From Candidatus Scalinduaceae bacterium (GTDB lineage: Bacteria > Planctomycetota > Brocadiia > Brocadiales > Scalinduaceae): a DNA stretch of 64,000 bases. Below the pieces are notes generated by a model. The model saw only the letters and a program-made list of their open reading frames with translations. It ran no database searches and had not been told where the DNA came from. Where the stretch lies: contig JBHICG010000001.1 in the NCBI GenBank assembly GCA_046759445.1, forward strand, positions 64,001 through 128,000, written 5' to 3'. Shown one piece after another: positions 14,448 to 47,711 of the stretch (positions are counted from its first letter, which is position 1; each line of letters opens with the position of its first letter). Both the position numbers and the translations under genes were made by a program.

Positions 14448-15140
14448 ATGCTTTGCAATCCTGAAATCTCTGTCATAATCCCTGCCTTGAATGAAGAAGA
14501 ATCCATCCATTTGGTACTCAATGATATACCAAAAGATTTAGTAAAAAAGGTTATTGTTGTAGACAATGGTAGCCGTGATAATACAGTAAATATAGCAAAA
14601 AAGTTAGGTGCAGAAGTAATATCAGAACCATTAAAAGGTTATGGTTCAGCGTGTCTGTGTGGAATAAATAAGCTTGACAGGAACACGGATATTGTAGTTT
14701 TTCTCGATGCTGACTATAGTGACTACCCTCAAGACATTTACATCCTTTTAAAACCGTTATTAACGGATAGAGCAGAGCTAGTAATTGGTTCACGATTATT
14801 AGGTAGAAGGGAAAAAGGGGCTTTATTACCACAAGCTCTTTTGGGTAATAAACTTGCTACATATTTACTCTGGCTATTTTTAGGGTTTAAGTATACAGAT
14901 TTGGGCCCGTTCAGGGCAATTAGATATAATGAATTAATAAAATTAAATATGAAAGATAAAAATTATGGATGGACTGTTGAAATGCAGATTAAGGCAATAA
15001 AAAAAGGGTTAAGGATTACAGAAGTACCTGTAAGGTATAGAAAGCGCATAGGAAAGTCAAAGATTACGGGCACCTTTTCAGGTACAATACTTGCCGGTTT
15101 TAAAATTATTTATACTATCCTAAAATATATAGTCTTATAG
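14448..15140 (+). CDS. Glycosyltransferase family 2 (Dpm1-like)
   Basis: IIPALNEE, VVDNGSRD, FLDADYSD, TDLGPFRAI, YGWTVEMQ. Confidence 0.9.
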   Translation: MLCNPEISVIIPALNEEESIHLVLNDIPKDLVKKVIVVDNGSRDNTVNIAKKLGAEVISEPLKGYGSACLCGINKLDRNTDIVVFLDADYSDYPQDIYILLKPLLTDRAELVIGSRLLGRREKGALLPQALLGNKLATYLLWLFLGFKYTDLGPFRAIRYNELIKLNMKDKNYGWTVEMQIKAIKKGLRITEVPVRYRKRIGKSKITGTFSGTILAGFKIIYTILKYIVL

Positions 15141-15148
15141 GAATAAAA

Positions 15149-15245
15149 GGCTCGTTCAGGGAACGAGCCCTACAATAAAAATGTTTTACGTTAGATTAAC
15201 ATGATGTGATGTTAAAATTGTAGGGTACGTTCCCCAAACGTACCG
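15149..15245. repeat. Inverted pair of GTAG-type REP-like palindromes
   Basis: ggctcgttcagggaacgagccctaca ... tgtagggtacgttccccaaacgtaccg. Confidence 0.7.
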
Positions 15246-15268
15246 TTTATGAATCTGTATATTTAACT

Positions 15269-15949
15269 ATGTCCACAATAGAAACCTCAATAATAATACC
15301 CACTCTTAATGAGGAAAAAGTCATAAAGAGATGCCTTGAAACCGTGGTGAATATCCCAGGTATTGAGGTGATTGTCTCCGATGGTGGGAGCAAAGACAAA
15401 ACTGTAGAAGTTACCAGATTATTCAAAGACATTAAACTAATCTTTTCTATGAGGGGACGCGGTATTCAAATGAATGCAGGAGCATCACATGCTCAGGGAA
15501 AAATACTCCTTTTCCTTCATGCAGATTGTATATTATCAAAAGAAGCTATCCTAAATGTTTTAACCACTTTGAAAAACAACTCAATAGCAGGTGGCGCTTT
15601 CAAGATAAAATTATTGTCTGATAAATTCCCTTACAGATTGATAGAAGCGGGAATAAACTTCCGCTCAAAGGTATTCAAATTACCTTATGGAGATCAGGGG
15701 TTGTTTGTTAAGAAGTCCATTTTTAAGGAACTAGGCGGTTTCAGAAGAATGGCGGTTTGCGAGGACGTGGATTTTATATGGCGCCTTAAAAAATTTGGGG
15801 AAATAACCATTCTTGATGAAGAGATTTGTTCCTCTGTTAGAAGATGGGAAAATAATGGAATCCTGCGGACATCTCTCAGAAATCAAACCTTGCTGGCTTC
15901 GTATATATTAAGACGAAAGAGCCTTAATCAGAAACATTCGCAAGAGTAG
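15269..15949 (+). CDS. TIGR04283-like GT2 glycosyltransferase (rSAM/selenodomain- and arsenosugar-associated)
   Basis: IIPTLNEE, DGGSKD, GRGIQMNAGA, FLHAD, LPYGDQGLF, EDVD, SSVRRW. Confidence 0.88.
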   Translation: MSTIETSIIIPTLNEEKVIKRCLETVVNIPGIEVIVSDGGSKDKTVEVTRLFKDIKLIFSMRGRGIQMNAGASHAQGKILLFLHADCILSKEAILNVLTTLKNNSIAGGAFKIKLLSDKFPYRLIEAGINFRSKVFKLPYGDQGLFVKKSIFKELGGFRRMAVCEDVDFIWRLKKFGEITILDEEICSSVRRWENNGILRTSLRNQTLLASYILRRKSLNQKHSQE

Positions 15950-16219: not shown

Positions 16220-16840
16220 ATGACCAAATCAAATGAGAAGAAGAGGTTATTTATTGAACTCTTAGATCCTCACAAAGATACTTTATATAGAGTATGTAAG
16301 AAATTGATCATAAATGGTAATGATATTGAAGATGCTTTGCAAACAACAATCATAAGCGCATATAAATCTTTTGATAGATTTGAAGAGGGGTCTAACTTTA
16401 AGGCATGGATATTTAAGTTTTTAATAAATACATTGTTTAACTTCAACAAAAAATACTCAAGGTTAAGTGCTTTTGAAACGTATCACGAAGAGGTTCTAGA
16501 TACCGCTCAGACCTCTTGTACTGAACATAAAGATGTGAATCTATTTGAAATGTTGGAAAAGGAAAATATCTACCACGAAATCCTGAAGAATCCATTAAAA
16601 TTGTTTGAAAACATAGACGGGCCCATGAAAGAATCTTTACTTAGGCTAAAAACAGCAGAACGAACGGTTTTTCTTCTCAGGTCTTTAACAGACCTTTCAT
16701 ATAAAGAAATGTCAAATGTCCTTGAGATACCTATAGGCACCGTGATGAGTCATCTCTATAGGGCAAGGGCGAAATTACGGGAATCACTTTGTGATTACGC
16801 CAGAGAGATCGGTTTATTTCGCGATAAGGACGCTTTCTAA
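16220..16840 (+). CDS. ECF RNA polymerase sigma factor
   Basis: EDALQ..FEEGSNFKAWIFK (region 2); LSYKEMS..IPIGTVMSHLYRAR (region 4). Confidence 0.92.
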   Translation: MTKSNEKKRLFIELLDPHKDTLYRVCKKLIINGNDIEDALQTTIISAYKSFDRFEEGSNFKAWIFKFLINTLFNFNKKYSRLSAFETYHEEVLDTAQTSCTEHKDVNLFEMLEKENIYHEILKNPLKLFENIDGPMKESLLRLKTAERTVFLLRSLTDLSYKEMSNVLEIPIGTVMSHLYRARAKLRESLCDYAREIGLFRDKDAF

Positions 16841-17640
16841 TGAATTGTAAAGAAGCAAGACGCTATATCAATCTGTTTTTGGATTCGGAATTGGATTCAA
16901 AGACCAATCTTGAAATAACAGAACACCTTTCATCTTGCGAGGACTGCAGTAAAAGGTTTGCACAGGAGGAAAGGATTGAAAAATCATTTGTGTCAGTTTT
17001 AAAGGAAGATAAAGATCCCAAGGCAGAAGAAATATGGGAAAGGACTATCTCCAGTTTTGGCCACCAAGTAGAGTCACGAGGAGAAAGGCGCTTAGGTTCC
17101 TGGTTTTATATAAGGTATGTTGTTACTGCAACAGTGGCTATCCTTGCCATAATTATTACGCTAATTATGTATAGTAAGCAAGAAAGCAATGACCTGACAG
17201 CAGCAGTACATAAATGTCACATGGAATATATAACAAATAAGACAATCCCCTCAATAGAATCTGTATCTCCAGGCGAGGTAGCCAAATATTTTTCTGGTAA
17301 ATTTACGTTTCCCGTAGTTCTTTCTGAAATCCCGGATATTAAATCGCATCATATCAGGTTATTTGGGGGGAAGGTGTGTCATATTAATGGAATTTCGGCG
17401 GCATATGTTATGTACCACTGTTGTAATACACCAGTTTCCGTATTCATCTTGAGCACGAAAGATGCTGAAATCTTTTACGATACGAAACAATATCTCAAAG
17501 GAGATAAGGTTCTCTTTAAGAAAATAGATGGAATTAAACTTATAGTAACACCAGCAAATCAAGATACCTTTGTTTGTGTAGTAGCTGATCATGATATTGA
17601 ATTACTCAGATGGGTAGCTAATAATTTTATAAGAACATAA
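16840..17640 (+). CDS. Zinc-binding (zf-HC2/ZAS) membrane anti-sigma factor
   Basis: MNC...HLSSCEDC motif, central TM helix, TAATG overlap with the sigma gene. Confidence 0.9.
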   Translation: MNCKEARRYINLFLDSELDSKTNLEITEHLSSCEDCSKRFAQEERIEKSFVSVLKEDKDPKAEEIWERTISSFGHQVESRGERRLGSWFYIRYVVTATVAILAIIITLIMYSKQESNDLTAAVHKCHMEYITNKTIPSIESVSPGEVAKYFSGKFTFPVVLSEIPDIKSHHIRLFGGKVCHINGISAAYVMYHCCNTPVSVFILSTKDAEIFYDTKQYLKGDKVLFKKIDGIKLIVTPANQDTFVCVVADHDIELLRWVANNFIRT

Positions 17641-17642
17641 AG

Positions 17643-20600
17643 ATGGGACTTGTTAAAGCAGCATTAAAAAATCCATATTTGGTTATCGTAATGGCTCTGG
17701 CAATTATAGTCATAGGGGTAACGTCCTTTTTTCGTTTACCTGCAGACTTACTCCCAATATTTAAGACTCCAGCAGTACAGATCTTGACCTTCTATCCCGG
17801 GATGCCGGCAGTGGTTATGGAACGAGATATTATGTCACGTCTGGAACGTTGGACTGGGCAGTCAATAGGCATCGAACATCAAGAGGCCAAAGCAATGATA
17901 GGGGTCTGCGTGGTAAAGGACTTTTTCAGGGAAGACATTGACCCGAATACGGCCATGTCTCAGGTGACGTCACTTGCCATGTCTGATCTTTTCTACATGC
18001 CTCCGGGCACAATTCCCCCAATGATAATGCCCTTTGACCCTACAGCTTCAATACCCCTTTGCCTCTTAAGCATATCCAGTCCAACGATGAGCGAAAAAGA
18101 ACTCTATGATGTTGCATATTTTGAGCTTAGGAATCGTCTTCAGAGTATCTCCGGGGTAATTGCGCCTGCCGTGTATGGTGGTGTACTCAGAAGAATACTT
18201 ACATATGTCGATCGTGACGAGCTTGAAGCTCGCGGACTTTCTCCCATGGACGTTGTGAATGCGCTTAAACGTTCAAATTTAATGATTCCCACTGGTAATG
18301 CCAAGTTTGGTATGCTTGATTACCAGATAAACTCGAACGCAATGGTTACGGAGGTTGCAGAGCTTAATGATATACCTATCAAGGTAGAAAAAGGGGCTAC
18401 AGTATTTCTTCGTGATGTGGCAACTGCAGAGGATTCTTATCAGATTCAGACAAACATAGTTCGTGTCAACGGCAAGAGGCAGGTTTATATCCCTATTTAT
18501 CGTCAACCAGGCGCTAATACCATTCAAATTGTTAATGAAGTACGTAATAGAAGTGGAAGGATTCTACAAAGACTTAAAGAGATGGATCCGAGAGTAAAGG
18601 ACATGCGTATGGACGTGGTTATGGATCAATCAGTTTCTGTCAAGAATACGATTAATGGTTTAAAGTATGCAGGTATCCTTGGCGCTGTTTTAGCGGCAAT
18701 TGTTGTATGGGTTTTTCTGGCCAATGTACGTTCAACAGTTATAATCCTTATATCACTTCCTTTAGCTATGCTTGTCGCATTCATAGGATTATTTTTTTCC
18801 AAGAACTCGCTTAATAGCATGACACTGGGAGGTCTTGCGCTGGCTGTAGGTATCCTGATTGACCAATCAATCGTGGTACTGGATAACATTGTTAGACATC
18901 TTCGAATGGGAGATAAATCGCCTATGAAAGCTGCGTTGGATGGCGCAACAGAGGTAGCCGGCCCGGTGCTGATTTCTACTATTACGTTTGCAGTGGTTTT
19001 TTATCCTATAGTCTTCCTTTCAGGGATGGCAAAGTTCCTCTTTACGCCACTGGCCCTGGCTGCTACCTTCGCTATTGTTGCTTCCTACCTCATAGCTATG
19101 ACGGTAGTTCCCGCATGCTGCGCCAAATTCTTACGTAAAACTGCCATAAAAAAAAGCACGCGTAAGCAGGATACTAATAACGAAAGGTTTGACGTTATAG
19201 CCTTGTTTTATGAAAGAATTTTGAGATCAGTTTTACAGAGAAAGCCGATTATTCTTCTAACCGTTTTTATCCTGTTTTTAGTTTCTATATTTATCTTTCA
19301 GAGGACTGGAACAGAACTCTTTCCTCAAGTGGATGCAGGTCAGTTTATGTTACTTGTTCGTTCTCCTTCAGGTACTCGTATAGAAGAAAGTGAAAGATTG
19401 ATTAAGGAGGTAGAAGTGGAAATCCAGGATGTGATGGGGATGGCTGATCCTGAGGGCCATAATCCTGCATCAGACTTGCGCATGATGGTTTCTAATATCG
19501 GAGTCCTTATGGATTGGCCTGCCGCATATACGCCTAATTCCGGCCCTATGGATTCATTTATATTGGTACAGCTAAAGGAAAACGCAAGGAATGGGACATT
19601 CAGTTACGTTAATATATTACGCAAAAAATTAAGAGAAGGATTTCCAGGAGTTGAGTTTGCCTTTGATACAGGTGGTATGTTAACGGCCGCGCTTAATTTT
19701 GGGCTACCATCTCCCATTAATATTCAGATTGAAGGAAGCCGTCTCGAGACGTCTTATGAAATAGCTAAAGCAATAGTACATGAGGTGAAAAAGGTTCCAG
19801 GAACTGCTGACGTTCGCATTGCACAGCGTCTTGATTATCCAGCCATAGACATTGAGGTGGATAGAGTAAAGGCTGCACATCTGGGTATCAGTCAGGAGGA
19901 CGTCGTGAAAAACATCGTCACAACGCTTAATTCGAGTGTTAATTTTGACCCCGCATTCTGGATAGACCACCGCAGTGGTAACCATTACTTTATTGGAGCT
20001 CAATACCTTGAAGACGATATCCGTTCACTACAAACACTTGAAAACATTCCTATTACCAGCTCAGATACGATGAGAGCAACTGTTCTAAAAAATATCGCTA
20101 CTTTCAAACGTACAACAGCGCCTGCAGTAGTAAATCACCTGAATATTACGAGAGTTATCGATGTCTATGCAAATGTATCTGGCAGGGACGTTGGTTCTAT
20201 TGCTGCAGAAATTGAAGAAAGATTAGAGAGGTCTGGAAAACTACAGACATTGATGGCAGAATACAAACCAAAGGGTTATACATACCATATTCGTGGGGAA
20301 GTACAAAGTATGCAAGAGTCTTTCAAGCAGTTTGGAACAGGTTTGGTTATTGCGACTATGCTTGTTTATCTGGTTATGGTTGCGCAATTCAGGTCTTTTC
20401 GTGACCCCTTTATAATCTTATTCACAGTCCCTCTTGGTTTCATTGGTGTTGCATTCATGCTTTACTTTACAAATACTAATCTTAATATTCAATCCTTCAT
20501 GGGGATTATTATGATGGTAGGGATTGTTGTTGCATATAGTGTACTTCTGGTAGAGTTTGCTAACAGACTCCAGGAGAAAGGAGTTTCTATAGAAGAGGCC

Positions 20601-20837
20601 ATTGTACAGGCTGCACGGATACGTCTTAGACCCATCTTAATGACCTCATTGACTACTATATTTGCCCTTTTACCGATGGCAGTTGACCTTGGGAACTCGG
20701 GCGGAGCAAATGTGCCTTTGGCACGCGCAATTATAGGTGGGGTACTGGGCGCTTTAATACTAAGTTTAATAGTCGTCCCTTCACTCTATACCATTTTTGC
20801 TAAAAAGGAAAAAAGTTTATGCCTGATAATAAAATAA
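17643..20837 (+). CDS. RND efflux permease subunit (AcrB/CzcA family)
   Basis: 1064 aa; GGLALAVGILID..IVVLDNI, RLRPILMT. Confidence 0.95.
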   Translation: MGLVKAALKNPYLVIVMALAIIVIGVTSFFRLPADLLPIFKTPAVQILTFYPGMPAVVMERDIMSRLERWTGQSIGIEHQEAKAMIGVCVVKDFFREDIDPNTAMSQVTSLAMSDLFYMPPGTIPPMIMPFDPTASIPLCLLSISSPTMSEKELYDVAYFELRNRLQSISGVIAPAVYGGVLRRILTYVDRDELEARGLSPMDVVNALKRSNLMIPTGNAKFGMLDYQINSNAMVTEVAELNDIPIKVEKGATVFLRDVATAEDSYQIQTNIVRVNGKRQVYIPIYRQPGANTIQIVNEVRNRSGRILQRLKEMDPRVKDMRMDVVMDQSVSVKNTINGLKYAGILGAVLAAIVVWVFLANVRSTVIILISLPLAMLVAFIGLFFSKNSLNSMTLGGLALAVGILIDQSIVVLDNIVRHLRMGDKSPMKAALDGATEVAGPVLISTITFAVVFYPIVFLSGMAKFLFTPLALAATFAIVASYLIAMTVVPACCAKFLRKTAIKKSTRKQDTNNERFDVIALFYERILRSVLQRKPIILLTVFILFLVSIFIFQRTGTELFPQVDAGQFMLLVRSPSGTRIEESERLIKEVEVEIQDVMGMADPEGHNPASDLRMMVSNIGVLMDWPAAYTPNSGPMDSFILVQLKENARNGTFSYVNILRKKLREGFPGVEFAFDTGGMLTAALNFGLPSPINIQIEGSRLETSYEIAKAIVHEVKKVPGTADVRIAQRLDYPAIDIEVDRVKAAHLGISQEDVVKNIVTTLNSSVNFDPAFWIDHRSGNHYFIGAQYLEDDIRSLQTLENIPITSSDTMRATVLKNIATFKRTTAPAVVNHLNITRVIDVYANVSGRDVGSIAAEIEERLERSGKLQTLMAEYKPKGYTYHIRGEVQSMQESFKQFGTGLVIATMLVYLVMVAQFRSFRDPFIILFTVPLGFIGVAFMLYFTNTNLNIQSFMGIIMMVGIVVAYSVLLVEFANRLQEKGVSIEEAIVQAARIRLRPILMTSLTTIFALLPMAVDLGNSGGANVPLARAIIGGVLGALILSLIVVPSLYTIFAKKEKSLCLIIK

Positions 20838-22018
20838 AAATACCTAAGATTACGTTAGCTATCAGTGGAATACTCATATTCCTTGCTGGAGGTATAATTG
20901 CAAGTCTTCTATCTCCCCGGGGGCGTCAGTTAGAAAATATGAACCAAGGCAAGGTTAAGACAACTGAAACTCCTCACGTGAGTGTTCAAAATCCCTTACG
21001 CAAAACAATACATCGAACGATCTTACTTCCTGGCGATATCTTCCCGTGGGAGCAAGCCACCCTATTTTCAAAGATCGCCGGGTACCTTGAAGAGATTCGA
21101 TTCGATAAAGGTGACTGGGTAAAGGAGGGAGACATAATAGCCAGGATAGCTGTTCCAGAACTTGAAAACGAATTGGAAAAGGAGCAAGCGGAATTGGCGC
21201 AGTGTAAGGCCGATATTGCGCGTGCAGACGCCGAAGTTAGATTAAGAGAGATTATATATAAACGTCTGTCGGAGGTTCGAGCAACAAGTAAGGATATGGT
21301 ATCAGAGGAACAGGTTGATGAAGCCAGCGGAAAGCTTGAGGTGGCAAAGGCAGAACTTGTCCTCTCAAAAAGTCGCAGTAACGTTGCCCGAGCAAACATA
21401 GAAAGGACAAAGACTTTCCTGGATTATACGATAATAAAGGCCCCTTTTACGGGCGTAATTACCAATAGATGGGTAGATCCCGGCGCCTTAATTCAAGTTG
21501 CGACTACTTCACAGAAAGATGTAGCTCCCATTGTGCACCTTATGGAAATAAATACCGTAAGAGTTCAGGTGCATATTCCCGAACCAGATACTCCTTACAT
21601 CGATATCGGTAAAAATGTTAAATTGACCGTTGACGAACTCCCGGGAAAGGTCTTTGAGTCAGGCATTTCCAGATTTTCATGGGCGCTTGAAAGAGGGACA
21701 CGAACAATGCTGGTAGAGATAGACTTCCCCAATGATGGTTATTTTTTGCGTCCCGGTATGTTTGCGAAGGTTATTATCAATCTAGAGGCACACAAAGATG
21801 TCCTGACGGTTCCCGCTGAATCTCTTATTACCGAAAAGGACAAGGCATACGTTTATGTAGTAAATGACAGTACGGTAAGGAAGGTATCGCTAAAGACTGG
21901 TATTGATGACGGAATTATAGTTGAAATCCTGGACGGCTTGGACGAAAATGACAAAGTAATAGTTGCTGGAAAACACTTGGTAAGTGAAGGAGAAGCCGTT
22001 ATCACCACAGAATTATAA
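20819..22018 (+). CDS. RND efflux periplasmic adaptor (membrane fusion protein)
   Basis: IKAPFTGVIT, LRPGMFA, alpha-hairpin. Confidence 0.93.
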   Translation: MPDNKIKIPKITLAISGILIFLAGGIIASLLSPRGRQLENMNQGKVKTTETPHVSVQNPLRKTIHRTILLPGDIFPWEQATLFSKIAGYLEEIRFDKGDWVKEGDIIARIAVPELENELEKEQAELAQCKADIARADAEVRLREIIYKRLSEVRATSKDMVSEEQVDEASGKLEVAKAELVLSKSRSNVARANIERTKTFLDYTIIKAPFTGVITNRWVDPGALIQVATTSQKDVAPIVHLMEINTVRVQVHIPEPDTPYIDIGKNVKLTVDELPGKVFESGISRFSWALERGTRTMLVEIDFPNDGYFLRPGMFAKVIINLEAHKDVLTVPAESLITEKDKAYVYVVNDSTVRKVSLKTGIDDGIIVEILDGLDENDKVIVAGKHLVSEGEAVITTEL

Positions 22019-22070
22019 AATTGGTAAAAATTATTGATGCAGTATAGTTTATTTAGCTATATTAGTTATA

Positions 22071-22322
22071 ATCCGAAGCACGAAACCCGAAATCCGAAAC
22101 AATATCGAATAACCAACCCTGAATCAAGTTCAGGACAAAACAAAAATCTAGCAACCTGTTTTGAACATTCAGTCATTTGAATTTAGAATTTGCTCGCCCT
22201 GTTAGATAACTTTGATTTTTAATTGTGTGTTACATAATAAAAGGGGTAATAATTTTTATAAGTGTTAAGAATAAAACATATCTAACAGGGTAAAGAGTTT
22301 CGGTATTCTTATTTCGGATTTT
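22071..22322. repeat. Composite palindromic element: CGAAATC-type heptamer arms with a nested MITE-like unit
   Basis: atccgaagcacgaaacccgaaatccgaa ... ttcggtattcttatttcggattt; internal perfect 12-bp IR ccctgttagata (22197) / tatctaacaggg (22279). Confidence 0.6.
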
Positions 22323-22407
22323 TACGATTACGATTATCCAAATGAAATACATTTCTCCGGCATTGTTTTTTAAGAAATGCTAACTCATTTTCTTTCGTTT
22401 ATTTACT

Positions 22408-23823
22408 TTGAAAGGTTTTTTATTGCATTTATATGCTACCTTAATAACGTTATTTATCATATCAATATTATCAGGATGTGGTTTACATTCGCAAACGTGG
22501 GAAACACCATGGTTAAGGGAACCTGCGCAATACCAGCCACCACCAGAACTGTTAGAAAAAAATAATTATGCTCCTGACAATAAGGCAAAAGCTCAAGGAT
22601 ACCCAATAGACTTGCCAACTGTTCTTCGCCTTGCAGGTGCACAGCCTCTAGAGCTGGCCATTGTTCGTGAAAAGGTTCATGATGCATACGCAAAGGTATT
22701 ACTCTCCAGAGAAAAATTTATCCCTAATATCATCCCAGAGGTTGAGTTTTCCAGACATGAGGAAGAGATTCAGGCAACTGCAGGACAGTTTTTTGAGGTG
22801 GACAAACAATTCATGTTTCCAAGGACAAAGGTGAACCTGGAGTTGGACGTTGGAGATGCAATCTACTCCACCCTTGCAGCCCAACAGCGTTATCATGCAA
22901 GCAAGGCAAAAATGGAAGCAACGACTAGAAATATTGTCCTGAAAGCCGTCATTGCATATTTCGAACTTCTTCAATCTCAGGCCGAGGTAAAGATTGGTGA
23001 AGAAGCCAAGAAAATATCTGAAACCCTAATCCGACAAACAGAAGCAGCCGTAAGCCTTGGTAAAGGGTTTAAGGGAGATGTGCTGCGAGCAAAGGCGCAA
23101 CTGGCCAGTGACCGCCTAGCGTTGACGAAGACAAAAGAGACACTTAGGATATCATCAGTGAATCTTGTTAATATCTTGAGGCTTGATCCGAAAATAAACC
23201 TCTTCCCTGCTGATCGCATTGCAACACCCATTCATCTTATACCTAAAGACAAAAACATAGAGAAACTTGTCCAGAACGCCGTTGAACAGAGACCGGAATT
23301 AAAAGAGGCTTCAGCGTTGCTTAGTTCCAGTAAGAAGGAGAAGGCTGCTTCAGTTTGGGGACCGATGATACCTTCTGTTCAGGCCGATATTAGAGCTGGT
23401 AGCTTTGGACCGACCCTTGATAATCTTAAGAGCACTGAGAGATATAACTTCTCATTAGGTTGGAAAGTAGGTTCTGGCGGTCTTTTTTATAAGGGCCGCA
23501 GGGAATTGGCTGATGCCAAATATCGTTCTTCGGAAATAAGATTAGCAAAGCTAGTACAGGACATTATACAGCAGGTGTTAGTCGCACATACTCAGGTAAA
23601 TGCCAAGCACGAGCAGATGTCTATTGCCGAACAAGGGGTTAAAGATGCTGAGGAATCACTGAAACTTAACGAAGCTCGATTAAGAATGGGAATAGGACTC
23701 CCTCTTGAAGTGCTTCAGGCACAAAAGGCATTGATACAGGCAAGGAGGGATTACGTTTCATCAATTATTGGTTACAACAAGGCTCAATATAGACTTTTTG
23801 TAAGTATTGGGAATAAGCCCTAG
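22408..23823 (+). CDS. TolC family outer-membrane efflux protein (lipoprotein)
   Basis: Lipobox LSGC; RPEL; C-terminal LEVLQAQ..L..AR..Y...YNKAQ; follows the RND and MFP genes. Confidence 0.9.
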   Translation: MKGFLLHLYATLITLFIISILSGCGLHSQTWETPWLREPAQYQPPPELLEKNNYAPDNKAKAQGYPIDLPTVLRLAGAQPLELAIVREKVHDAYAKVLLSREKFIPNIIPEVEFSRHEEEIQATAGQFFEVDKQFMFPRTKVNLELDVGDAIYSTLAAQQRYHASKAKMEATTRNIVLKAVIAYFELLQSQAEVKIGEEAKKISETLIRQTEAAVSLGKGFKGDVLRAKAQLASDRLALTKTKETLRISSVNLVNILRLDPKINLFPADRIATPIHLIPKDKNIEKLVQNAVEQRPELKEASALLSSSKKEKAASVWGPMIPSVQADIRAGSFGPTLDNLKSTERYNFSLGWKVGSGGLFYKGRRELADAKYRSSEIRLAKLVQDIIQQVLVAHTQVNAKHEQMSIAEQGVKDAEESLKLNEARLRMGIGLPLEVLQAQKALIQARRDYVSSIIGYNKAQYRLFVSIGNKP

Positions 23824-24188: not shown

Positions 24189-24214
24189 GGAATATTTTCT
24201 ATTTATGATTTGTC
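24189..24214 (+). promoter_or_regulatory. Candidate ECF (SigR/SigH-like) promoter
   Basis: GGAAT-N18-GTC upstream of 24276; same spacing at 30162 and 32413. Confidence 0.5.
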
Positions 24215-25727: not shown

Positions 25728-25730
25728 GAA

Positions 25731-34445: not shown

Positions 34446-34454
34446 TTTGTATAA

Positions 34455-35936: not shown

Positions 35937-36030
35937 CTTCGTACAATGCTGTGAAAAACAGCAGGAAATGTCTTAAGAGATATAAAACCCGTTAAGATAG
36001 TAAACGTGAGAATAACTATTTTAACCCTTT

Positions 36031-36104: not shown

Positions 36105-36155
36105 CACTTATTGTCTAAATATTTATTGTTTTCTATATAAAAACGAAATACTTTT

Positions 36156-39297: not shown

Positions 39298-40425
39298 ATG
39301 GCAATATTAATAATCCTTTTCCTGACTACGTGTTTTCTTGCATACTCAAACGGTGCTAATGATAACTTTAAGGGAGTAGCTACGCTCTTTGGTAGCAGAA
39401 CTACTAATTATAAAAACGCCATTCGGTGGGCGACTATTACGACTTTTGCAGGTTCGGTGGGTTCGGTATTCTTTGCTCACGCCCTTGTAAAGACCTTTTC
39501 TGGAAAGGGGTTGGTACCACAGGATATCTCTATATCACCTGAATTTCTTACCGCGGTGGCAATCGGTGCCGCTATTACGGTCATGGTTGCGACGGTTACG
39601 GGTTTCCCCATATCAACCACACACAGTCTTACGGGCGCCCTCGTTGGCGCTGGGTTTATGGCCATAGGCTCGGAGGTTAACTTTACCGTCTTGGGCAGCT
39701 CTTTTTTTCTTCCACTTTTACTCAGTCCCTTTATCGCAACAGCAATTGGCGGAATTCTTTATATTTTATTCCGAAGTATTCGCATTCGTTCTGGTATTAC
39801 AAAGGAGTGGTGTCTTTGTATTGGCGAGCAGAAGGAAATAATACCCTCTACCCAGCCAGTTGCTATCCTTGCAGCAAAATGTGGGAATTCCATCGATGCG
39901 ACAATTGATAAAAGTCAAAACTGTATAGAAACCTATAAAGGAAATTTCCTGGGCATGAATTGCCAGAAGATGTTAGATTATCTGCACTTTTGTTCTGCTG
40001 GCATTGTGAGTTTTGCCAGAGGCTTAAATGATACACCAAAGATTGTAGCACTTTTATTATTAATCAAGGGTCTGGCAATACACTGGGGTATGCTGGCTGT
40101 CGCTGTTGGTATGGCGCTAGGCGGACTTTTAAATGCCCGCAAAGTCGCCGAAACTATGAGTAACAAAATCACAAGGCTTAATCACGGTCAGGGCTTTACA
40201 GCAAACCTTGTTACTGGTATACTTGTTATATTTGCCAGTAAGTTTGGAATGCCAGTATCTACGACACACGTATCAGTAGGGTCGCTCTTCGGTATAGGCT
40301 TGGCTACTAAGCACATAAACACTCATAAAGTACTAGAAATAATTTTATCGTGGTTCATAACACTGCCCTTAGCTGCTATATTCAGCGGCGGCGCTTATTG
40401 GATATTAGTCAGATTTGCGAATTAA
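39298..40425 (+). CDS. PiT family inorganic phosphate/anion transporter
   Basis: NGAND, PISTTHS, GLND and PVSTTH signature repeats. Confidence 0.92.
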   Translation: MAILIILFLTTCFLAYSNGANDNFKGVATLFGSRTTNYKNAIRWATITTFAGSVGSVFFAHALVKTFSGKGLVPQDISISPEFLTAVAIGAAITVMVATVTGFPISTTHSLTGALVGAGFMAIGSEVNFTVLGSSFFLPLLLSPFIATAIGGILYILFRSIRIRSGITKEWCLCIGEQKEIIPSTQPVAILAAKCGNSIDATIDKSQNCIETYKGNFLGMNCQKMLDYLHFCSAGIVSFARGLNDTPKIVALLLLIKGLAIHWGMLAVAVGMALGGLLNARKVAETMSNKITRLNHGQGFTANLVTGILVIFASKFGMPVSTTHVSVGSLFGIGLATKHINTHKVLEIILSWFITLPLAAIFSGGAYWILVRFAN

Positions 40426-40577: not shown

Positions 40578-42089
40578 ATGGATAAAATGTTTTTAATAAT
40601 AATCCTTATTTTCTACTGTCCTGCAGCATTATGGTTGTTCCTCTATGGCATTAACAATTATTATATGGTTTATCTTTTTTTAAGTAAAAGGAAGAAAGAA
40701 GCATCTCAAAATGCTGAATTCCTCAAACGGTTCTGGTCTACTCATGGCAAATACAAGTTGCCAAAAGTTACTACACAATTACCCATATATAATGAAAGAT
40801 ACGTAGTAAAACGTTTAATTAAGGCGGTTGTGAATCTTGATTATCCGAAGGAACTACACGAAATTCAGATACTGGACGATTCTAATGATGAAACGAGAGA
40901 TATAGTAGCTGATCTGGTTAATAAATACAGTAAAAAGGGATTCAACATAAAACAAATCATCAGAGAAAATAGAATTGGGTTTAAGGCAGGTGCCTTAAAT
41001 AAAGGACACGAAGAAGCTGAAGGTGAGTTTCTGGCAATCTTTGATGCTGACTTTGTGCCTGATAAAAACTTTTTTTATGAAACCATCCCTTTCTTTTACG
41101 AAAAAGAAAAAGTTGCCCTTGTCCAGACACGGTGGGGACACATAAATAGAAATTACTCTCTCCTAACAATTGCCCAGAGTATTGGCATGGATGGACACTT
41201 TATTATTGAACAGGGCGCCAGGACATGGAACGGCCTTTATATGAACTTTAATGGGACTGCTGGAATCTGGAGGAAAGAGGCAATCGTTGATGCTGGAGGG
41301 TGGCATTATGATACTTTAACTGAGGATTTAGATTTATCATACAGGGCACAATTAAAAGGATGGAATACAAAATTTCTTTTTGATGTAGTAACGCCTTCAG
41401 AGTTACCCGTGGATATGAATGCCTATAAGTCCCAACAGCATAGATGGGCTAAAGGCTCAATACAAACTGCCAAGAAGGTTTTGCCACAGATATTTAAGAC
41501 GAAAGATAGTTTTACAAAGAAGATTGAGGCATTTATACACCTCAACCAGTATATGGTACACCCTATGATGATCGTCCTTGCCTTACTATCCCTTCCATTA
41601 ATAATCTTATTAAAACCATTAGTAATCTCTATTTCTAGTACAATGGTAGCCCTGTTGCTTCTAATATTCCTGGGAGCCTCTGCACCATCATTTCTTTATA
41701 TAGTATCTCAGAAGGTAGGTTATAGGGATTGGTGGAAAAGATGTTTGTTTATACCTGCGCTTATGTTTATCGGATGTGGAGTTGCCATCAATAACACAAA
41801 GGCTGTGCTTGAAGCATTATTTAACATTAAGAGTGATTTTGTTAGAACGCCGAAGTACGGTGTTATCAGAAGAGGAAAGAACATAATAGCAAAAAATTAT
41901 ACTTTACCAGTAAAGTTATTCTTTGTCAGTGAAATACTCTTAAGTATATATTGTTTTATTGGATTCATACAATATACAAACGACAAGAAGTTTGTCTTTG
42001 GGCCTTTTCTATTAATGTATGCAATAGGGTTTTTCTACGTAGGCATACTGTCTCTTTTGCAAAAATTTAATGAGAAAATAAAATGCTGA
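40578..42089 (+). CDS. Membrane GT2 glycosyltransferase, cellulose-synthase-like
   Basis: QLPIYNE, LDDS, GFKAGAL, FDADF, TEDLD, QQHRW, FVRTPK. Confidence 0.93.
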   Translation: MDKMFLIIILIFYCPAALWLFLYGINNYYMVYLFLSKRKKEASQNAEFLKRFWSTHGKYKLPKVTTQLPIYNERYVVKRLIKAVVNLDYPKELHEIQILDDSNDETRDIVADLVNKYSKKGFNIKQIIRENRIGFKAGALNKGHEEAEGEFLAIFDADFVPDKNFFYETIPFFYEKEKVALVQTRWGHINRNYSLLTIAQSIGMDGHFIIEQGARTWNGLYMNFNGTAGIWRKEAIVDAGGWHYDTLTEDLDLSYRAQLKGWNTKFLFDVVTPSELPVDMNAYKSQQHRWAKGSIQTAKKVLPQIFKTKDSFTKKIEAFIHLNQYMVHPMMIVLALLSLPLIILLKPLVISISSTMVALLLLIFLGASAPSFLYIVSQKVGYRDWWKRCLFIPALMFIGCGVAINNTKAVLEALFNIKSDFVRTPKYGVIRRGKNIIAKNYTLPVKLFFVSEILLSIYCFIGFIQYTNDKKFVFGPFLLMYAIGFFYVGILSLLQKFNEKIKC

Positions 42090-43135
42090 TTATGAATATT
42101 CCTGATAAAAGACTTTTTCAATTATTTTGCCTAATAGCCTGTTTAACGATTCCAGCAATTGATTTAGACCGTACATGTTTTGCAAACATACACGAAAAGG
42201 ACGAAATAAAATATGTACTTCCTCGTGACGCTATCCCTGCCATAAAGAATCCTGAATTTGTCCCTGCAAGTGAAGCAAGACTTGATGATGATGAACCTGT
42301 TATAGGCATAACTATTAATGGTGAAAGTCGTGCCTATTCTGTTTATCTCCTGAATCATCACGAAATAGTCAATGATAAAATAGGAGATAAAGATATTGCC
42401 ATCACCTGGTGTCCCCTTGCGAACCTGGCAGTTGTATATAACAGGAAAGTTGACGGCAAAGAATATACGTTTGGAGTATCGGGTAAGCTACTCAAGAACA
42501 CCCTCGTAATGTTTGATTACGAAACTGAATCCCTCTGGCCAATCGTTTATGGCAAGGCTATAGATGGAAAACTATCGGGTAAAAAAACAAATATAGTAGT
42601 TAACAGCCAAAAGATGTCATGGGGTGCATGGAAGGCATTACACCCAGATACATTGCTACTGTCTCTTCATGGTTCAAGAACAGTTGGTTATGATGTTTAT
42701 AAACATTATCATAAGAGTAAAAAAACAGGCATATATCCTGTCGTAAATTCAGATAAAAGTTTAAGTGCGAAGACAAATGTTATCGGAATAGAACTTAATA
42801 GCAAACATAAGGCTTATCCCTTTAGCATATTTGATACTACGAAAATAGTTACTGATAAATTTCAGGGTGAGGACTTGCTTATTTATAGAAACAATGAGAC
42901 CAATAATATCATGGTCTATGATAGACACGTAGACGAATATATAATTGATTTTGAAGAAAATTCATCACAAAATTTTGCTACGGATAAAACAACAAAAACT
43001 ACGTGGGACTTGGAAAATGGGATTGGCATAAAGGGTAACATGAAGGGTATACGGTTACAACGTGTTAGTTTTATGGCCATTTACTGGTTTGTCTGGGCAG
43101 ATTATTATCCTGATACTGAAATATTTAATCAATGA
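42083..43135 (+). CDS. DUF3179 domain protein
   Basis: DAIPAI..PEF, HEIVND, TWCPL, FGVSGKL, FVWADYYP. Confidence 0.9.
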   Translation: MLIMNIPDKRLFQLFCLIACLTIPAIDLDRTCFANIHEKDEIKYVLPRDAIPAIKNPEFVPASEARLDDDEPVIGITINGESRAYSVYLLNHHEIVNDKIGDKDIAITWCPLANLAVVYNRKVDGKEYTFGVSGKLLKNTLVMFDYETESLWPIVYGKAIDGKLSGKKTNIVVNSQKMSWGAWKALHPDTLLLSLHGSRTVGYDVYKHYHKSKKTGIYPVVNSDKSLSAKTNVIGIELNSKHKAYPFSIFDTTKIVTDKFQGEDLLIYRNNETNNIMVYDRHVDEYIIDFEENSSQNFATDKTTKTTWDLENGIGIKGNMKGIRLQRVSFMAIYWFVWADYYPDTEIFNQ

Positions 43136-43453: not shown

Positions 43454-44950
43454 ATGAATAGGAAATTACTTTCCATAATAATAACAGGACTGGTCATTGA
43501 AATCCTGTGTATTTCGATTGCTTCCCTTGGAGATATCAAGGAAAATATACCTATGTTTTGTTTTCTGTATACAGCCTCTTTTATTGTTTATATCTTTGCT
43601 GTATTTTATATTTTGAAAAACACCGAGATATTTGGAAAAGACAAAAGCAATTCTAAAAAGATTCTTTGGACTATTATAATCTTTTCACTGATATTTCGTT
43701 TGACACTATTACCTATGACTCCATCAGAGGATGTTTATCGTTACTTATGGGAAGGAAAGTTACAATTAAATTGGCTTAATCCATATTCCTACCCGCCGGA
43801 ATCGTCAAGTCTGGAACATCTCAGGGACAACTTTTTTTCCGGCATTAACCACAAACATCTGACCACAATCTACCCTCCACTGACGTTAATGGCGTTTGCC
43901 CTAGCGGATTACGTATCTCATTCCTTCATATCAATGAAGTCTACTTTTTTGTTTTTTGATGTGCTTTCAATATTCATATTAATAAGGTTTTTAAGGGTAG
44001 TGGGAGGGAAACCCGCTAATGTGTTGATATATGCATGGAGCCCGTTAGTCCTTATTAGTTTTGCGGCAAAGGGACATTGCGATTCTTTGCAGATATTTCT
44101 CGTAATTCTTGCCTTATACCTTTTCTCTATTAGAAAGAATTTAAAATCTATCGTTTCGATTGGCCTGGCAGCAATGTCCAAATTTGTATTCATTATTATA
44201 GCCCCTTTCTTAATTCCCAGACGTAAACTCAAATATCTTATAGTTTTGTTTACAGTTATTGCACTTTTGTACTTACCATACATTGGCGCTGGTAAGGGGT
44301 TATTTTCGACACTTTTACATTTTGGGACTCAATATCATTACAATGATTCAGCTCACTTCCTGATTTTTTGCCTATGTCTCGGCTCTCCATTTATGTCTAA
44401 GATAATTACGTCTATAATTTTTTGCGCTGTACTTTTGTATTTGTATATAAATCATATGACCCTTTTATTTACAAAAGATAATGAAAATTCCCCTAATTCC
44501 TGCTTTAGCAGGCATAAAGGGGGGACAAATCCCCCTCTTTCCCCCCCGCAGCTTTCTTGCACCGTATCGGCACTATGCGAAAGCAAGAAGCAGGGGGGAT
44601 TTAGGGAGATTGATGATAATATTTTAAAATTTGCCTTTCTGTCTGTTGGTACCTTTTTAATATTTGCACCAACAGTTCATCCATGGTATCTAACATGGAT
44701 TGTCCCCTTCCTCTGTTTCTATCATAGCTGGGCATGGCTTGTCTTGACAGGAACTGTTGTTTTCTATTATTTTATGAATCATAATTTATTTTCAAGTATG
44801 ATAGAGTATAACAACGAATGGGTATGGCAAGAAGTCCACTGGTTAAAATTACCAGAATATGTCCCTTTTTATTGTCTGTTAATTTATGGATGGCTAAGAT
44901 CAGGTTCAGCCGCTAAGGCACGCCAGAACGATGTATCGGCTGTGTCATAA
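43454..44950 (+). CDS. GT-C fold membrane glycosyltransferase (GT87/DUF2029-like) with an in-frame repeat insertion
   Basis: SEDVYRYLWEG, TIYPP, YAWSPL, GHCD, PTVHPWY; many TM segments. Confidence 0.85.
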   Translation: MNRKLLSIIITGLVIEILCISIASLGDIKENIPMFCFLYTASFIVYIFAVFYILKNTEIFGKDKSNSKKILWTIIIFSLIFRLTLLPMTPSEDVYRYLWEGKLQLNWLNPYSYPPESSSLEHLRDNFFSGINHKHLTTIYPPLTLMAFALADYVSHSFISMKSTFLFFDVLSIFILIRFLRVVGGKPANVLIYAWSPLVLISFAAKGHCDSLQIFLVILALYLFSIRKNLKSIVSIGLAAMSKFVFIIIAPFLIPRRKLKYLIVLFTVIALLYLPYIGAGKGLFSTLLHFGTQYHYNDSAHFLIFCLCLGSPFMSKIITSIIFCAVLLYLYINHMTLLFTKDNENSPNSCFSRHKGGTNPPLSPPQLSCTVSALCESKKQGGFREIDDNILKFAFLSVGTFLIFAPTVHPWYLTWIVPFLCFYHSWAWLVLTGTVVFYYFMNHNLFSSMIEYNNEWVWQEVHWLKLPEYVPFYCLLIYGWLRSGSAAKARQNDVSAVS

Positions 44951-44968
44951 TTATAAAAACGCTCTCAA

Positions 44969-45116
44969 TGTCATTCTGAACCCTTCGCCCGTCATTCTGA
45001 GCCGAAGGCGAAGAATCTAGTTGAGGCTCAGGATAAACTCCGTTAAGAATCTGATATCTTCAGTAGGTTATAAAACCGAGATTCTTCGGCTAACGCCTCA
45101 GAACGATTATATGACA
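44969..45116. repeat. Nested cluster of TGTCATTCTGA-type REP-like palindromes
   Basis: tgtcattctgaacccttc / cgtcattctgagccgaaggcgaagaatct ... agattcttcggctaacgcctcagaacga. Confidence 0.7.
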
Positions 45117-45164
45117 GAGCTTTAAATATTTCTTACATAATGTTTTATGGGAGGTTAACACTAA

Positions 45165-47711
45165 ATGGAAGTAAACGATAAATCACTTTTTTACGTACAT
45201 GATTATGTTCAAATAGAGAGAGACTCTCTTTATCTACTTATAGACCCCGAAACACCAAATTGGATTGTAACTGACAAAAGAGGCAGCCAGATTGTAAGCA
45301 ATATTAAAAAATGTAAAAACGTTAGAAAACTGATATTCGACTATGCAAATGATTTTGATATGGAACAAACCAGGGCATGGTTGGAAATAGATACATTTCT
45401 GAGGGATTTGATAAGGTGTAAATTCTTATCCTCAGAACCCGTAAAGAAAACTGCTTACGTCGGCAGATCAAATTTCATTCACGCAGAAAAACTCAATGAA
45501 CTATGGATTCACACTAATAATCTCTGCAATCTGACATGTCCGCATTGTCTGGTGAATTCATCTCCACACGAGGATAAAGGTCTTCCTACGGACTCAATCA
45601 AGAAGATTATTGACGAAGCTGTAACATTAGGAACAAGCTGTTTCTATTTTACGGGTGGCGAGCCATTTATGAGGAAAGATATTTTTGAACTTATTGAGTA
45701 TGTTTGCAATCGTAAAGGGACAGAACTGATAATACTTACAAATGGAACACTTCTGAGAGGAAACATCATTGAAAGATTACAAAAGTTTAATAAGGAACAA
45801 CTAAGGATTCAGATAAGCCTTGATGGTTCAAAGCCGGAAATAAACGACCCTTTGAGGGGTAAGGGCAGCTTTGACCAAATTATCGAGGGGATTAAGAATA
45901 TTATCAGGATTGGATATTCTCCGACAATAACAACCGTGGTGACAAAACATAATATTAATGATGTGCCTGAAACGACAAAGCTGATTGCACAATTGGGTGT
46001 AAAGACTCATCATCTCCTCTGGGTACACAAACGAGGCAGGGTAACTGATAATGGTAATGATTTTTTTACTTCAATAGATGAGGTAATCGAAACAACGAGA
46101 AAGGTGAAGGATGTAGCAGATAACCTGGGTATGTCAGTAGACAACATTGATTCTTACAAATTCAGGGCAAATAGCAACAGAGGAACACGTTACGATTTGG
46201 GTAATGCCTGTTACGATAGCATGTGCGTATATTCAAATGGTGAAGTCTACCCGTCTGCTTCATTTGCCGGCCATGAAGGGCTGAAATGTGGAAGTATACT
46301 TGAGAATTCCCTTAGAGAAATCTGGGAAAATAGTAATATTAGCAAGGCATTTAGAAACGCAACACTACAGAATAAAGAAAAATGCAACGAATGTCATATA
46401 AAGTTTATATGCGGTGGTGGTGATATTGAACATTCATTCTTCTATTCTGAAAATGGGTTCAAGCTGGAAAATAATAAATTCCCTGCAGACGTTGGCGTAC
46501 ATGCCTTGGACCCTTATTGTGACCTGCACAAGGAGATAGTCAATGACGTAATATTTGAGCTTGCTGAGGCGAGGAAGAAGTTGTTGGAAAGAAAAACAGG
46601 GTTTACTGCTCCCGTTGTATTACGCTCAATGGGCGAAGGCTCTCTCAATTGTGGATTGACGATTTCGGATTTCGGAATAGAAAATCTAAAATCCGAAATC
46701 CGAAATCCGAAATCGGTTCGTACTCTTCATTCAAACTGTGTGCTTTCTTTTGACGTGGATAAGCCAAGAAGTATTGTACGTGAGTTTTATGGTAATGCGG
46801 CAGAAGCTCCTCAAGAGGACTTATGTTGTCCAACCAAGAATTCAACAGAAGATACAAGTCATATTCCACAGGATGTATTGGACAGGTTCTATGGATGCGG
46901 AAGTCCGACTACAATAGCAGAAGTCTCAGAAGGAGAGACGATGGTCGATTTGGGAGCAGGCGCGGGGATTGACTGTTTCATTGCTGCAAAGAAGGTTGGC
47001 CCAAAGGGTAAGATTTACGGGATAGACATGACGGATGAAATGTTAAAGGTTGCCAATGAAAACAAACATCCGGTGGCAAGGAACCTTGGTTACGATATTG
47101 TGGAATTTAGAAAAGGATTTTTAGAAGATATTCCCGTTGATAATAATTCAGTTGATTTGATCACATCAAATTGCGTTATCAATCTATCCCCTGACAAAAA
47201 AAAGGTCTTCGGCGAAATGTGGCGAATACTGAGGGATCACGGGAGGATTGTTATCTCTGATATTGTTTCTGAAGAAGAAACTCCTCCGTTTTTAAAAATC
47301 AATAAACAACTGTGGGGTGAATGCATCAGCGGCGCATTAACCGAAGACGAATTTATGTCCTATCTTGAACAGGCTGGCTTTTATGGACTTCAAACACTAC
47401 AGAAGGTCTTCTGGAAAGAAGTGGAAGGGTATTCATTCTATTCAGTAACATTACGTGGGTATAAGTTTGAAAAGAAGGAGGGTTGTGTATACGTTGGGCA
47501 AAAGGCAATTTATCATGGCCCGTATAAGGCAATAACGGATGAAGAAGGCCACCTGTTCCCCAGGAACGAGCCCGTTGAAGTCTGCACAGATACAGCGGCC
47601 AAACTAAGCAACCCACCTTATGCAGGACAATTTACCATATTCAATCCTGACGATGCAAATACCGCATCATACAATTGCAGTCCCTCGGAAGAAGGCGTTC
47701 CTTGTTGTTGA
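45165..47711 (+). CDS. Fusion: PqqD/RRE-like N-terminus + radical SAM/SPASM + arsenite methyltransferase (ArsM-like)
   Basis: CNLTCPHC, FTGGEP, SLDG; SPASM-type cysteines; LCCP, FYGCGSP, DLGAGAG, SNCVINL, WGECISGA, terminal CC. Confidence 0.9.
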   Translation: MEVNDKSLFYVHDYVQIERDSLYLLIDPETPNWIVTDKRGSQIVSNIKKCKNVRKLIFDYANDFDMEQTRAWLEIDTFLRDLIRCKFLSSEPVKKTAYVGRSNFIHAEKLNELWIHTNNLCNLTCPHCLVNSSPHEDKGLPTDSIKKIIDEAVTLGTSCFYFTGGEPFMRKDIFELIEYVCNRKGTELIILTNGTLLRGNIIERLQKFNKEQLRIQISLDGSKPEINDPLRGKGSFDQIIEGIKNIIRIGYSPTITTVVTKHNINDVPETTKLIAQLGVKTHHLLWVHKRGRVTDNGNDFFTSIDEVIETTRKVKDVADNLGMSVDNIDSYKFRANSNRGTRYDLGNACYDSMCVYSNGEVYPSASFAGHEGLKCGSILENSLREIWENSNISKAFRNATLQNKEKCNECHIKFICGGGDIEHSFFYSENGFKLENNKFPADVGVHALDPYCDLHKEIVNDVIFELAEARKKLLERKTGFTAPVVLRSMGEGSLNCGLTISDFGIENLKSEIRNPKSVRTLHSNCVLSFDVDKPRSIVREFYGNAAEAPQEDLCCPTKNSTEDTSHIPQDVLDRFYGCGSPTTIAEVSEGETMVDLGAGAGIDCFIAAKKVGPKGKIYGIDMTDEMLKVANENKHPVARNLGYDIVEFRKGFLEDIPVDNNSVDLITSNCVINLSPDKKKVFGEMWRILRDHGRIVISDIVSEEETPPFLKINKQLWGECISGALTEDEFMSYLEQAGFYGLQTLQKVFWKEVEGYSFYSVTLRGYKFEKKEGCVYVGQKAIYHGPYKAITDEEGHLFPRNEPVEVCTDTAAKLSNPPYAGQFTIFNPDDANTASYNCSPSEEGVPCC

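Follow-up and report, generated by a model that had tools for sequence, protein, structure and literature searches.

The window analysed here is a stretch of 64,000 nucleotides (assembly GCA_046759445.1, contig JBHICG010000001.1, positions 64,001 to 128,000) from the 97% complete genome of a marine anammox bacterium, Candidatus Scalinduaceae. Between positions 14448 and 47711 it holds a block of genes for glycosyltransferases, transporters and thiol-redox proteins, ending with a gene for an 848-residue protein in which an enzyme of the radical S-adenosylmethionine (SAM) type is fused to an ArsM-type arsenic methyltransferase. This fusion occupies the slot that in relatives is held by the radical SAM enzyme ArsS together with ArsM. 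On balance, comparison of the gene neighbourhoods inclines us to the view that the fusion does the job of ArsS plus ArsM and that the glycosyltransferases turn its product into an arsenic-containing sugar or sugar-lipid.

The features of the block are listed below. Counts refer to 25 fusion loci of relatives, to 38 distant lineages carrying the fusion and to the 132 genomes of the class; the relatives' loci were fetched as 15-40 kb and often ended at a contig edge, which makes their counts lower bounds.

14448..15140, + strand: DPM-synthase-like GT2 glycosyltransferase, a predicted polyprenyl-phosphate sugar synthase (PF00535; best NCBIfam match AglJ-type, under its cut-off)
15269..15949, + strand: arsenosugar-associated GT2 of family TIGR04283 (238.7 bits, cut-off 182)
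16220..23823, + strand: variable cassette of extracytoplasmic function (ECF) sigma factor, anti-sigma factor, RND permease, adaptor (MFP) and TolC
24189..24214, + strand: candidate ECF promoter, GGAAT-N17-TGTC, upstream of the second ECF gene
24276..24677, + strand: 133-residue secreted protein, the first gene past the motif (no Pfam or NCBIfam match; 2 of 25 relatives' loci)
25185..26537, + strand: ECF sigma factor (SigH/SigR-like; TIGR02947 the best match, under its cut-off) and zinc-finger anti-sigma factor (zf-HC2, RsrA-like); 11 of 25 relatives' loci
26548..27240, + strand: TVP38/VTT (DedA-family) membrane protein, a candidate lipid-carrier flippase (PF09335; 14 of 38 distant lineages)
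27378..28802, + strand: MerA-like disulfide oxidoreductase, not MerA (TIGR02053 389 bits, cut-off 454; 14 of 38 distant lineages)
29119..29916, + strand: DUF547 protein (PF04784; 9 of 38 distant lineages)
30263..36764, + strand: variable thiol and metal block (HMA, TlpA-like, two unknowns, PilZ-like, thioredoxin, CcdA, flavodoxin-like reductase, TlpA-like, broken DinB)
36966..39278, + strand: multiheme c-type cytochrome of 770 residues, variable (ExtM-like, under cut-off; orthologue in 42 of 132 genomes)
39298..40425, + strand: PiT-family oxyanion transporter (PF01384), the commonest neighbour in distant lineages (19 of 38)
40578..42089, + strand: cellulose-synthase-like (CESA-like) membrane GT2 (in 17 of the 25 loci of relatives, but in a single one of the 38 distant lineages)
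42083..43135, + strand: DUF3179 protein, cysteine form (PF11376)
43454..44950, + strand: GT87/MptA-like GT-C transferase (Atlas 0.99, TM 0.82 by query; no Pfam match)
45165..47711, + strand: the fusion, made up of a candidate RRE-like domain, a radical SAM core, a SPASM domain that is degenerate in part and a complete ArsM-type methyltransferase (848 residues, single open frame)

Across the class, the radical SAM gene of this neighbourhood (the head) comes in three forms. All 132 genomes were searched for ArsS (by the TIGR04167 cut-off), for the radical domain of the RRE/SPASM-ArsM fusion (E 1e-70) and for a short, ArsS-like ArsM fusion (E 1e-40), and the three heads were found in 32, 36 and 26 genomes respectively, three of the 36 being divergent forms of 1000 residues. 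A head is present in 93 genomes; only one of them (G028) has two, and ArsS never occurs together with either fusion (pairwise overlaps 0, 0 and 1). Within a single family (f4), 18 of 47 genomes carry ArsS, 24 carry the short form and none has both, and three genera (g7, g16 and g38) each hold two different heads. Many genomes are incomplete, and no P value is attached to this exclusivity because kindred genomes are not independent.

All three heads were found beside the same CESA-like GT2, GT87, DPM-like GT2, PiT, TVP38, MerA-like and DUF547 genes. One relative (G063) has the order CESA-like GT2, DUF3179, GT87, DPM-like GT2, TlpA, ArsS, ArsM, and the same glycosyltransferase genes precede the short fusion in seven genomes (G013, G057, G070, G071, G081, G082 and G085); another (G033) has ECF, TVP38, MerA-like, DUF547, PiT, ArsS, ArsM. 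In several relatives the DPM-like GT2 lies directly between GT87 and the radical enzyme. An orthologue of the GT87 gene was detected in 35 of the 132 genomes, 34 of which have a head, in 27 cases within about 3 kb (a hand tally from coordinates). Three heads that replace one another exclusively while their neighbours stay constant are most simply read as sharing a function. An earlier reading, made from the sequence alone, had likened the block to arsenosugar-type neighbourhoods, and the finding of ArsS and ArsM in the fusion's slot in relatives supports this likeness. The three-way exclusive swap, the link with GT87 and the promoter motif described below are what the present analysis adds.

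The short fusion, found in Brocadiaceae and about 600 residues long, resembles the window fusion in its ArsM domain (about 54% identity), in its neighbours and in being mutually exclusive with it except in G028. It differs in having neither the RRE-like nor the SPASM domain, and profile comparison pairs its radical domain with ArsS over the whole length, down to the C-terminal cysteines (268 columns, E 2e-27).

The structure predicted for the window fusion is a confident one, with a mean pLDDT of 86.4 and a pTM of 0.83. Its top Foldseek matches are As(III) methyltransferases (E 7e-22), followed by the peptide maturases CteB, SuiB and SkfB, and residues 1-470 match CteB with a TM score of 0.75 by target. 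The N-terminus of the model consists of three strands followed by three helices; PF05402 is matched on several homologues, and there is no Pfam match on the fusion's own first 112 residues. Cysteine conservation was scored in 57 of 120 listed homologues, hand-picked for spread. The radical CxxxCxxC motif and the ArsM cysteines C554, C555, C578, C670 and C720, which we take to correspond to the four catalytic cysteines of CmArsM, are invariant in all 57. C354 is kept in 56 homologues, as is the linker cysteine C496, and the other linker cysteine, C525, in all 57; serine stands at position 364 in 56, and the C-terminus past the ArsM domain bears a conserved terminal CC motif. The SPASM-type (auxiliary-cluster) cysteines, present in the window fusion, are kept in only 28-46 of the 57. 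No precursor peptide adjoins the fusion in the window among open reading frames (ORFs) of at least 60 residues, shorter ones not having been searched, and none was seen in the loci of seven relatives, where a full-size gene overlaps the fusion or ends shortly before it and ORFs under 80 residues were not searched. One homologue (P0243) has the reverse order, ArsM first and radical domains second, which suggests that the two kinds of domain were joined more than once.

Two further observations concern the fusion gene itself. A short inverted and tandem repeat at 46648-46713 encodes part of the low-confidence linker (residues 496-515). Three loci (L214:8617-11625, L215:7513-10614 and L216:760-3876) encode the divergent fusions of about 1000 residues, with some 250 extra C-terminal residues, and none of the usual neighbours was recognised there.

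ArsS is absent genome-wide: the highest TIGR04167 score, 77.6 bits where the cut-off is 300, belongs to the fusion, and no match to the DUF3641 C-terminal domain, which is present in a relative's ArsS, was found in the genome. The sequence-only reading had recognised no ArsS in the block and had seen a SPASM-type enzyme in its place, and on both counts it agrees with the profile searches, the enzyme being the fusion. It had likewise failed to recognise TIGR04282, correctly as far as the block is concerned; a member of that family is encoded elsewhere in the genome, on contig C86, with a score over the cut-off (203.5 against 134), and a TIGR04282 gene adjoins the fusion in four relatives (G034, G036, G038 and G040).

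The radical domain may be kin to ArsS. Two trees of the radical core put the fusion, the short form and ArsS on one side and other radical SAM enzymes on the other (support 94/90 with 77 rows, and 100/98 with 57 rows), trees in which ArsS sits on a long stem and the outgroup was picked by similarity to the fusion. The sequence comparisons make the short form a credible distant sister of ArsS; the tie of the window fusion to ArsS rests on gene context, and the fusion may represent a second route to a carbon-arsenic bond unrelated to ArsS.

Parts of the neighbourhood recur in distant lineages. From a metagenome scan, the best 80 of 298 confirmed relatives, together with two genome loci (from Omnitrophota and an unclassified bacterium), formed 39 clusters at 80% identity; the Scalindua-like cluster was dropped, and the longest locus of each of the remaining 38 was counted, many of these loci being short. 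Gene labels are at family level because they were assigned by best BLAST match to the window proteins. PiT was found in 19 of these lineages, TIGR04282 or TIGR04283 in 17, TVP38 and MerA-like proteins in 14 each, DUF547 in nine, GT87 in seven, the DPM-like GT2 in six, CcdA in three, DUF3179 in two, and the CESA-like GT2 and thioredoxin in one each; RND, TolC, the cytochrome and ArsS were found in none of the 38. Where at least 10 kb of flank was available, TIGR04282 or TIGR04283 was present in 11 of 17 lineages, and 18 of 21 such ORFs pass the NCBIfam cut-off. ArsS is also absent from the Omnitrophota and unclassified genomes that carry the fusion, the completeness of neither being stated. In two distant clusters the gene immediately before the fusion encodes an ArsR/SmtB regulator with a C-terminal CC, a feature that presumably binds arsenic. 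The neighbourhood conservation across genomes with the fusion that the sequence-only reading had named as a check is observed for TIGR04282/04283, PiT, TVP38, MerA-like, DUF547 and GT87.

The whole block is not conserved in this way. In the 25 relatives' fusion loci, DUF3179 occurs 19 times, the CESA-like GT2 17, GT87 15, the flavodoxin-like reductase 14, DUF547 and the second TlpA 13 each, PiT and the second ECF 11 each and TIGR04283 eight; CcdA occurs twice, thioredoxin and PilZ once each, and RND (with TolC) and the cytochrome not at all. A cytochrome lies near the head in four of 14 short-fusion loci and in one of 23 ArsS loci. Close orthologues of the ECF-RND cassette occur in 10 of the 132 genomes, and in one other genome (G071) it stands beside a radical-ArsM gene, following the short fusion. 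The cassette and the cytochrome are recurrent guests and not part of the core, and the thioredoxin-CcdA pair, each member of which has a second copy elsewhere in the genome, is a variable addition. The single pathway across the 33 kb, full thiol-redox chain included, that the sequence-only reading had proposed is not supported by these counts.

A candidate control element lies at 24189-24214, past the RND cassette; 87 bases separate it from the gene that opens the downstream unit. Its sequence, GGAAT-N17-TGTC, we take to resemble SigR/SigH promoters. When its final base was allowed to be C or T, the motif was sought within 2.5 kb upstream of the ECF gene at 20 loci and was found in 18 (14 of 16 without duplicates; one of the misses has no upstream DNA), against one of 20 on the reverse strand, a count that is partly circular because the motif was first read from some of the same loci. 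Both ArsS loci and short-fusion loci are among those bearing it, and the strict motif occurs in one of the 170 short regions taken upstream of other genes of the cluster. The motif at 24189 is proposed as a candidate ECF promoter of the unit that follows the RND cassette. Scans for sigma-70 promoters and terminators were uninformative, being near the level of shuffled sequence (promoter-like sites 61 against 58, and 66 against 53).

ArsS adenosylates dimethylarsenite, DMAs(III), to 5'-deoxy-5'-dimethylarsinoyl-adenosine (DDMAA) according to the accessible part of PMC13598754, and ArsS and ArsM are described in excerpts of PMC8552651 as starting arsenosugar synthesis. A scheme of the same kind may be drawn for the block. 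To judge from its family, PiT would import arsenate along with phosphate; the thiol proteins and the MerA-like reductase would hold arsenic in the trivalent state and recycle enzyme disulfides. Methylation of As(III) by the ArsM domain is strongly predicted from fold and cysteines, and the gene slot suggests that the radical domain would then adenosylate the methylarsenical in the manner of ArsS. Activation and transfer of the arsenoribose would fall to TIGR04283 and to TIGR04282, whose gene is outside the block. An optional branch, lipid-carrier glycosylation, would involve the DPM-like GT2, TVP38 and GT87. Expression of the unit from the 24189 motif is likely controlled by a thiol-sensing ECF sigma factor. 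The RND cassette, the cytochrome and the thioredoxin-CcdA pair would be variable additions to a scheme whose chemical steps are all predicted.

Several results weigh against this assignment. The radical domain fails TIGR04167 (77.6 against 300) and has no DUF3641, and the ArsM models all stay under their cut-offs on the fusion (NCBIfam ArsM, 240 against 263). An approximately unbiased (AU) test does not reject a placement of ArsS outside the group (p 0.2); in profile comparisons the fusion scores better with ordinary SPASM enzymes (E 1e-72) than with the short form (2e-48), and ArsS has a stronger match in ordinary SPASM enzymes (2e-19) than in the fusion (8e-15). By the query used, 59 of the 93 head-bearing genomes lack the GT87 orthologue, and only one of the 32 with ArsS has it. 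One relative (G011) keeps its TIGR04283 block (MEMO-GT2-TIGR04283) about 1.08 Mb from the fusion, no ArsR was found in the block and no Acr3 in the genome, and the related genomes compared are non-independent samples.

One alternative reading is a cluster for thiol stress and the cell envelope, run by the ECF factor, in which ArsM detoxifies arsenite, the radical domain modifies a peptide, protein or sugar, and the glycosyltransferases make an envelope glycan that holds no arsenic. The N-terminal half of the fusion is maturase-like, with CteB, SuiB and SkfB as its best solved relatives and PF05402 on several homologues; the regulator is a SigH/RsrA-like pair and not ArsR; and the GT87 module is optional. 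Nevertheless, the radical domain is nearly always fused to ArsM, once in the reverse order, and it excludes ArsS; the SPASM cysteines are kept in only 28-46 of 57 homologues, whereas the two linker cysteines are kept in 56 and 57; and the seven loci checked leave little space for a precursor, among ORFs of at least 80 residues. We regard this explanation as unlikely. Somewhat less probable again is that the fusion forms a carbon-arsenic bond other than that of ArsS, through another SAM fragment or a further radical step, and so yields a non-sugar organoarsenical. No model identifies the fusion as ArsS, and it has extra domains and extra conserved cysteines, including the terminal CC; moreover, in the portion of 10.1101/2024.02.01.577332 consulted, ArsL of arsinothricin synthesis is a CxxxCxxC enzyme that cleaves SAM differently, transfers another fragment of it and has a C-terminal RCCLKC motif. 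That tail is absent from the fusion, however, and the same product as that of ArsS is indicated because the neighbours are shared and ArsS is excluded.

That the entire 33 kb is one pathway, in which RND exports the product while electrons come from the cytochrome and the complete thiol chain, appears very improbable. The ECF-RND cassette does stand directly after the short fusion in G071, and a cytochrome lies beside the head gene in three genomes (G028, G054 and G076); yet RND is missing from all 38 distant lineages and all 25 relatives' loci, strong RND orthologues occur in four genomes with no head nearby (G005, G088, G050 and G034, two of them on short contigs), and the promoter motif is positioned past the RND cassette. 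We give least credence to a cluster that handles selenium or tellurium in place of arsenic. The best NCBIfam match of the cytochrome is ExtM of a selenite/tellurite operon (249.7 against a cut-off of 800), some DUF3179 relatives carry TGA at the cysteine position, and DUF3179, ArsM and TIGR04167 stand among the selenoprotein families listed in the part of PMC9312934 available. Against this, SelD scores below its cut-off in the genome (92.6 against 125), and the methyltransferase fold matches ArsM best. Selenocysteine within an enzyme marks a reactive thiol position and is not a sign of selenium as substrate.

The preferred assignment, a fusion replacing ArsS plus ArsM, may be set beside the systems it resembles. 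With the arsenosugar pair ArsM and ArsS of the Synechocystis type, the block shares an ArsM-type methyltransferase, a radical SAM enzyme and PiT, TVP38, MerA-like and DUF547 neighbours; it also contains TIGR04283, with TIGR04282 elsewhere in the genome, and relatives hold true ArsS in the same slot. It differs in that one polypeptide carries both domains, with a putative RRE-like N-terminus and SPASM in place of DUF3641, and in its added GT87 branch, likely ECF control and anammox host. The block appears to work like an arsenosugar cassette, yet it is no member by the ArsS criterion. Like ArsL and ArsM in arsinothricin synthesis, it would bring radical SAM and ArsM jointly to bear on arsenic, and it too has terminal cysteines; it differs in having no RCCLKC tail, in its glycosyltransferase neighbours and in a NF040538 score of 205 against a cut-off of 500. 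The RRE-radical SAM-SPASM peptide maturases (CteB, SuiB, SkfB and StsB) have the domain order and fold of residues 1-470. Unlike them, the fusion is joined to ArsM and scores far under the cut-offs of all the family models; its auxiliary-cluster cysteines are poorly conserved among homologues, and no precursor peptide was seen within the ORF sizes searched in the window and the seven loci.

In the accessible sections of PMC12159101, the only two radical SAM enzymes described as forming carbon-arsenic bonds are ArsS and ArsL, and bacterial arsenosugars are those of cyanobacteria. A literature search, outside which lay most subscription journals and all supplements, returned nothing on an RRE/SPASM-ArsM fusion or on anammox arsenosugars. 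Taken together, the comparisons suggest that the block likely makes arsenic-containing sugars or lipids by an undescribed variant route. If the fusion performs the ArsS reaction, surveys based on ArsS would miss about two thirds of the capable genomes of the class, the head being other than ArsS in 61 of 93, and marine anammox bacteria would have to be considered as a possible origin of organic arsenic in anoxic water. The swap seen in nature would supply three enzymes for one predicted product. We know of no enzymes assigned to the steps from DDMAA to arsenosugar lipids, for which TIGR04282, TIGR04283 and GT87 are candidates. A wider and frankly speculative picture, which we think improbable as a whole, is that three swappable radical SAM enzymes lead to the same arsenoribose, and that the DPM-like GT2, TVP38 and GT87 load it on a lipid carrier for an envelope lipid or glycan; anammox bacteria and many uncultured lineages of oxygen-poor seas and sediments would then use arsenic as a deliberate envelope building block under thiol-sensing sigma control.

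The gene list given by the sequence-only reading (TIGR04283, GT2s, GT-C, TVP38, MerA-like, DUF547, DUF3179, PiT, RND, thiol genes and fusion) is confirmed by profile and structure matches; it had omitted the two ECF sigma/anti-sigma pairs, the 770-residue multiheme cytochrome and the DinB gene broken by TGA. Its statement that every credible gene of the block is on the + strand also holds, each of the nine minus-strand ORFs of at least 90 residues being nested inside a + gene. The same-strand run begins earlier, at the MEMO gene at 13482, and ends at 47711, and its 34.2 kb make it the sixth longest of the genome's 665 such runs, 10 of which exceed 32 kb; co-orientation carries no weight here because this length is ordinary for the genome. 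The term "island" is not upheld either. Gene G+C content in the block is 0.32-0.43 (genome mean 0.37), no tRNA was found, nor any integrase among the flanking genes scanned, and the left border at ThiI-like/MEMO and the gene order are the same in six relatives (G001, G002, G003, G008, G016 and G019). Foreign origin of the block was rejected because of this composition, the absence of tRNA and the border kept in six relatives. Contigs from two metatranscriptome runs of one study span 30 of 30 bins of 28001-48000, mostly at 90-95% identity; DNA carry-over is possible and there was no silent control, and they are not counted as evidence.

As for single genes, the MerA-like protein at 27378..28802 misses the TIGR02053 cut-off (389 against 454) and has no C-terminal cysteine pair. 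The CcdA gene encodes the CcdA/DsbD membrane domain, and the block holds two TlpA-like proteins. The DinB-family gene (36156-36764) has an in-frame TGA at 36507-36509; selenocysteine read-through was rejected because six relatives have tryptophan there, and the TGA is a nonsense change or a sequencing error. In the same part of the block, a 283-residue protein with HExxH and no family match (31534-32385) is found near the fusion at 70-78% identity in several relatives, including another family, and a His-rich secreted protein of 98 residues (32493-32789), a possible metal binder, is in none of the 25 relatives' loci. An AhpD/CMD-family gene precedes PiT in several relatives (e.g., L026:6939-7469); here its homologue is on contig C2, and the cytochrome occupies that place.

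Next to the fusion at three loci (L035:4159-5235, L036:10167-11312 and L037:3322-4458), DUF3179 has an in-frame TGA, likely selenocysteine, at the position of the window's cysteine, and in several genomes of the family concerned a single TGA interrupts an ArsM-like gene that stands apart. Relatives of GT87 in the Atlas are fused to GT2 domains (cyanobacteria) or to a class I SAM methyltransferase (a 306-member cluster). An interspersed repeat of 56 nucleotides lies in frame within the GT87 gene (44542-44597) and again in the gap upstream (43248-43303), with at least 12 further matches in the genome. Outside the block, the right flank (48475-51724 and further on) holds defence-like genes, which encode a TIR-domain protein, a restriction enzyme of SacI-like type and a Dam-type methylase; beyond these come unknown genes and one with an FRG domain. 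On the left, at 8832-10532, a HAD hydrolase is joined to a CofD/YvcK-like domain.

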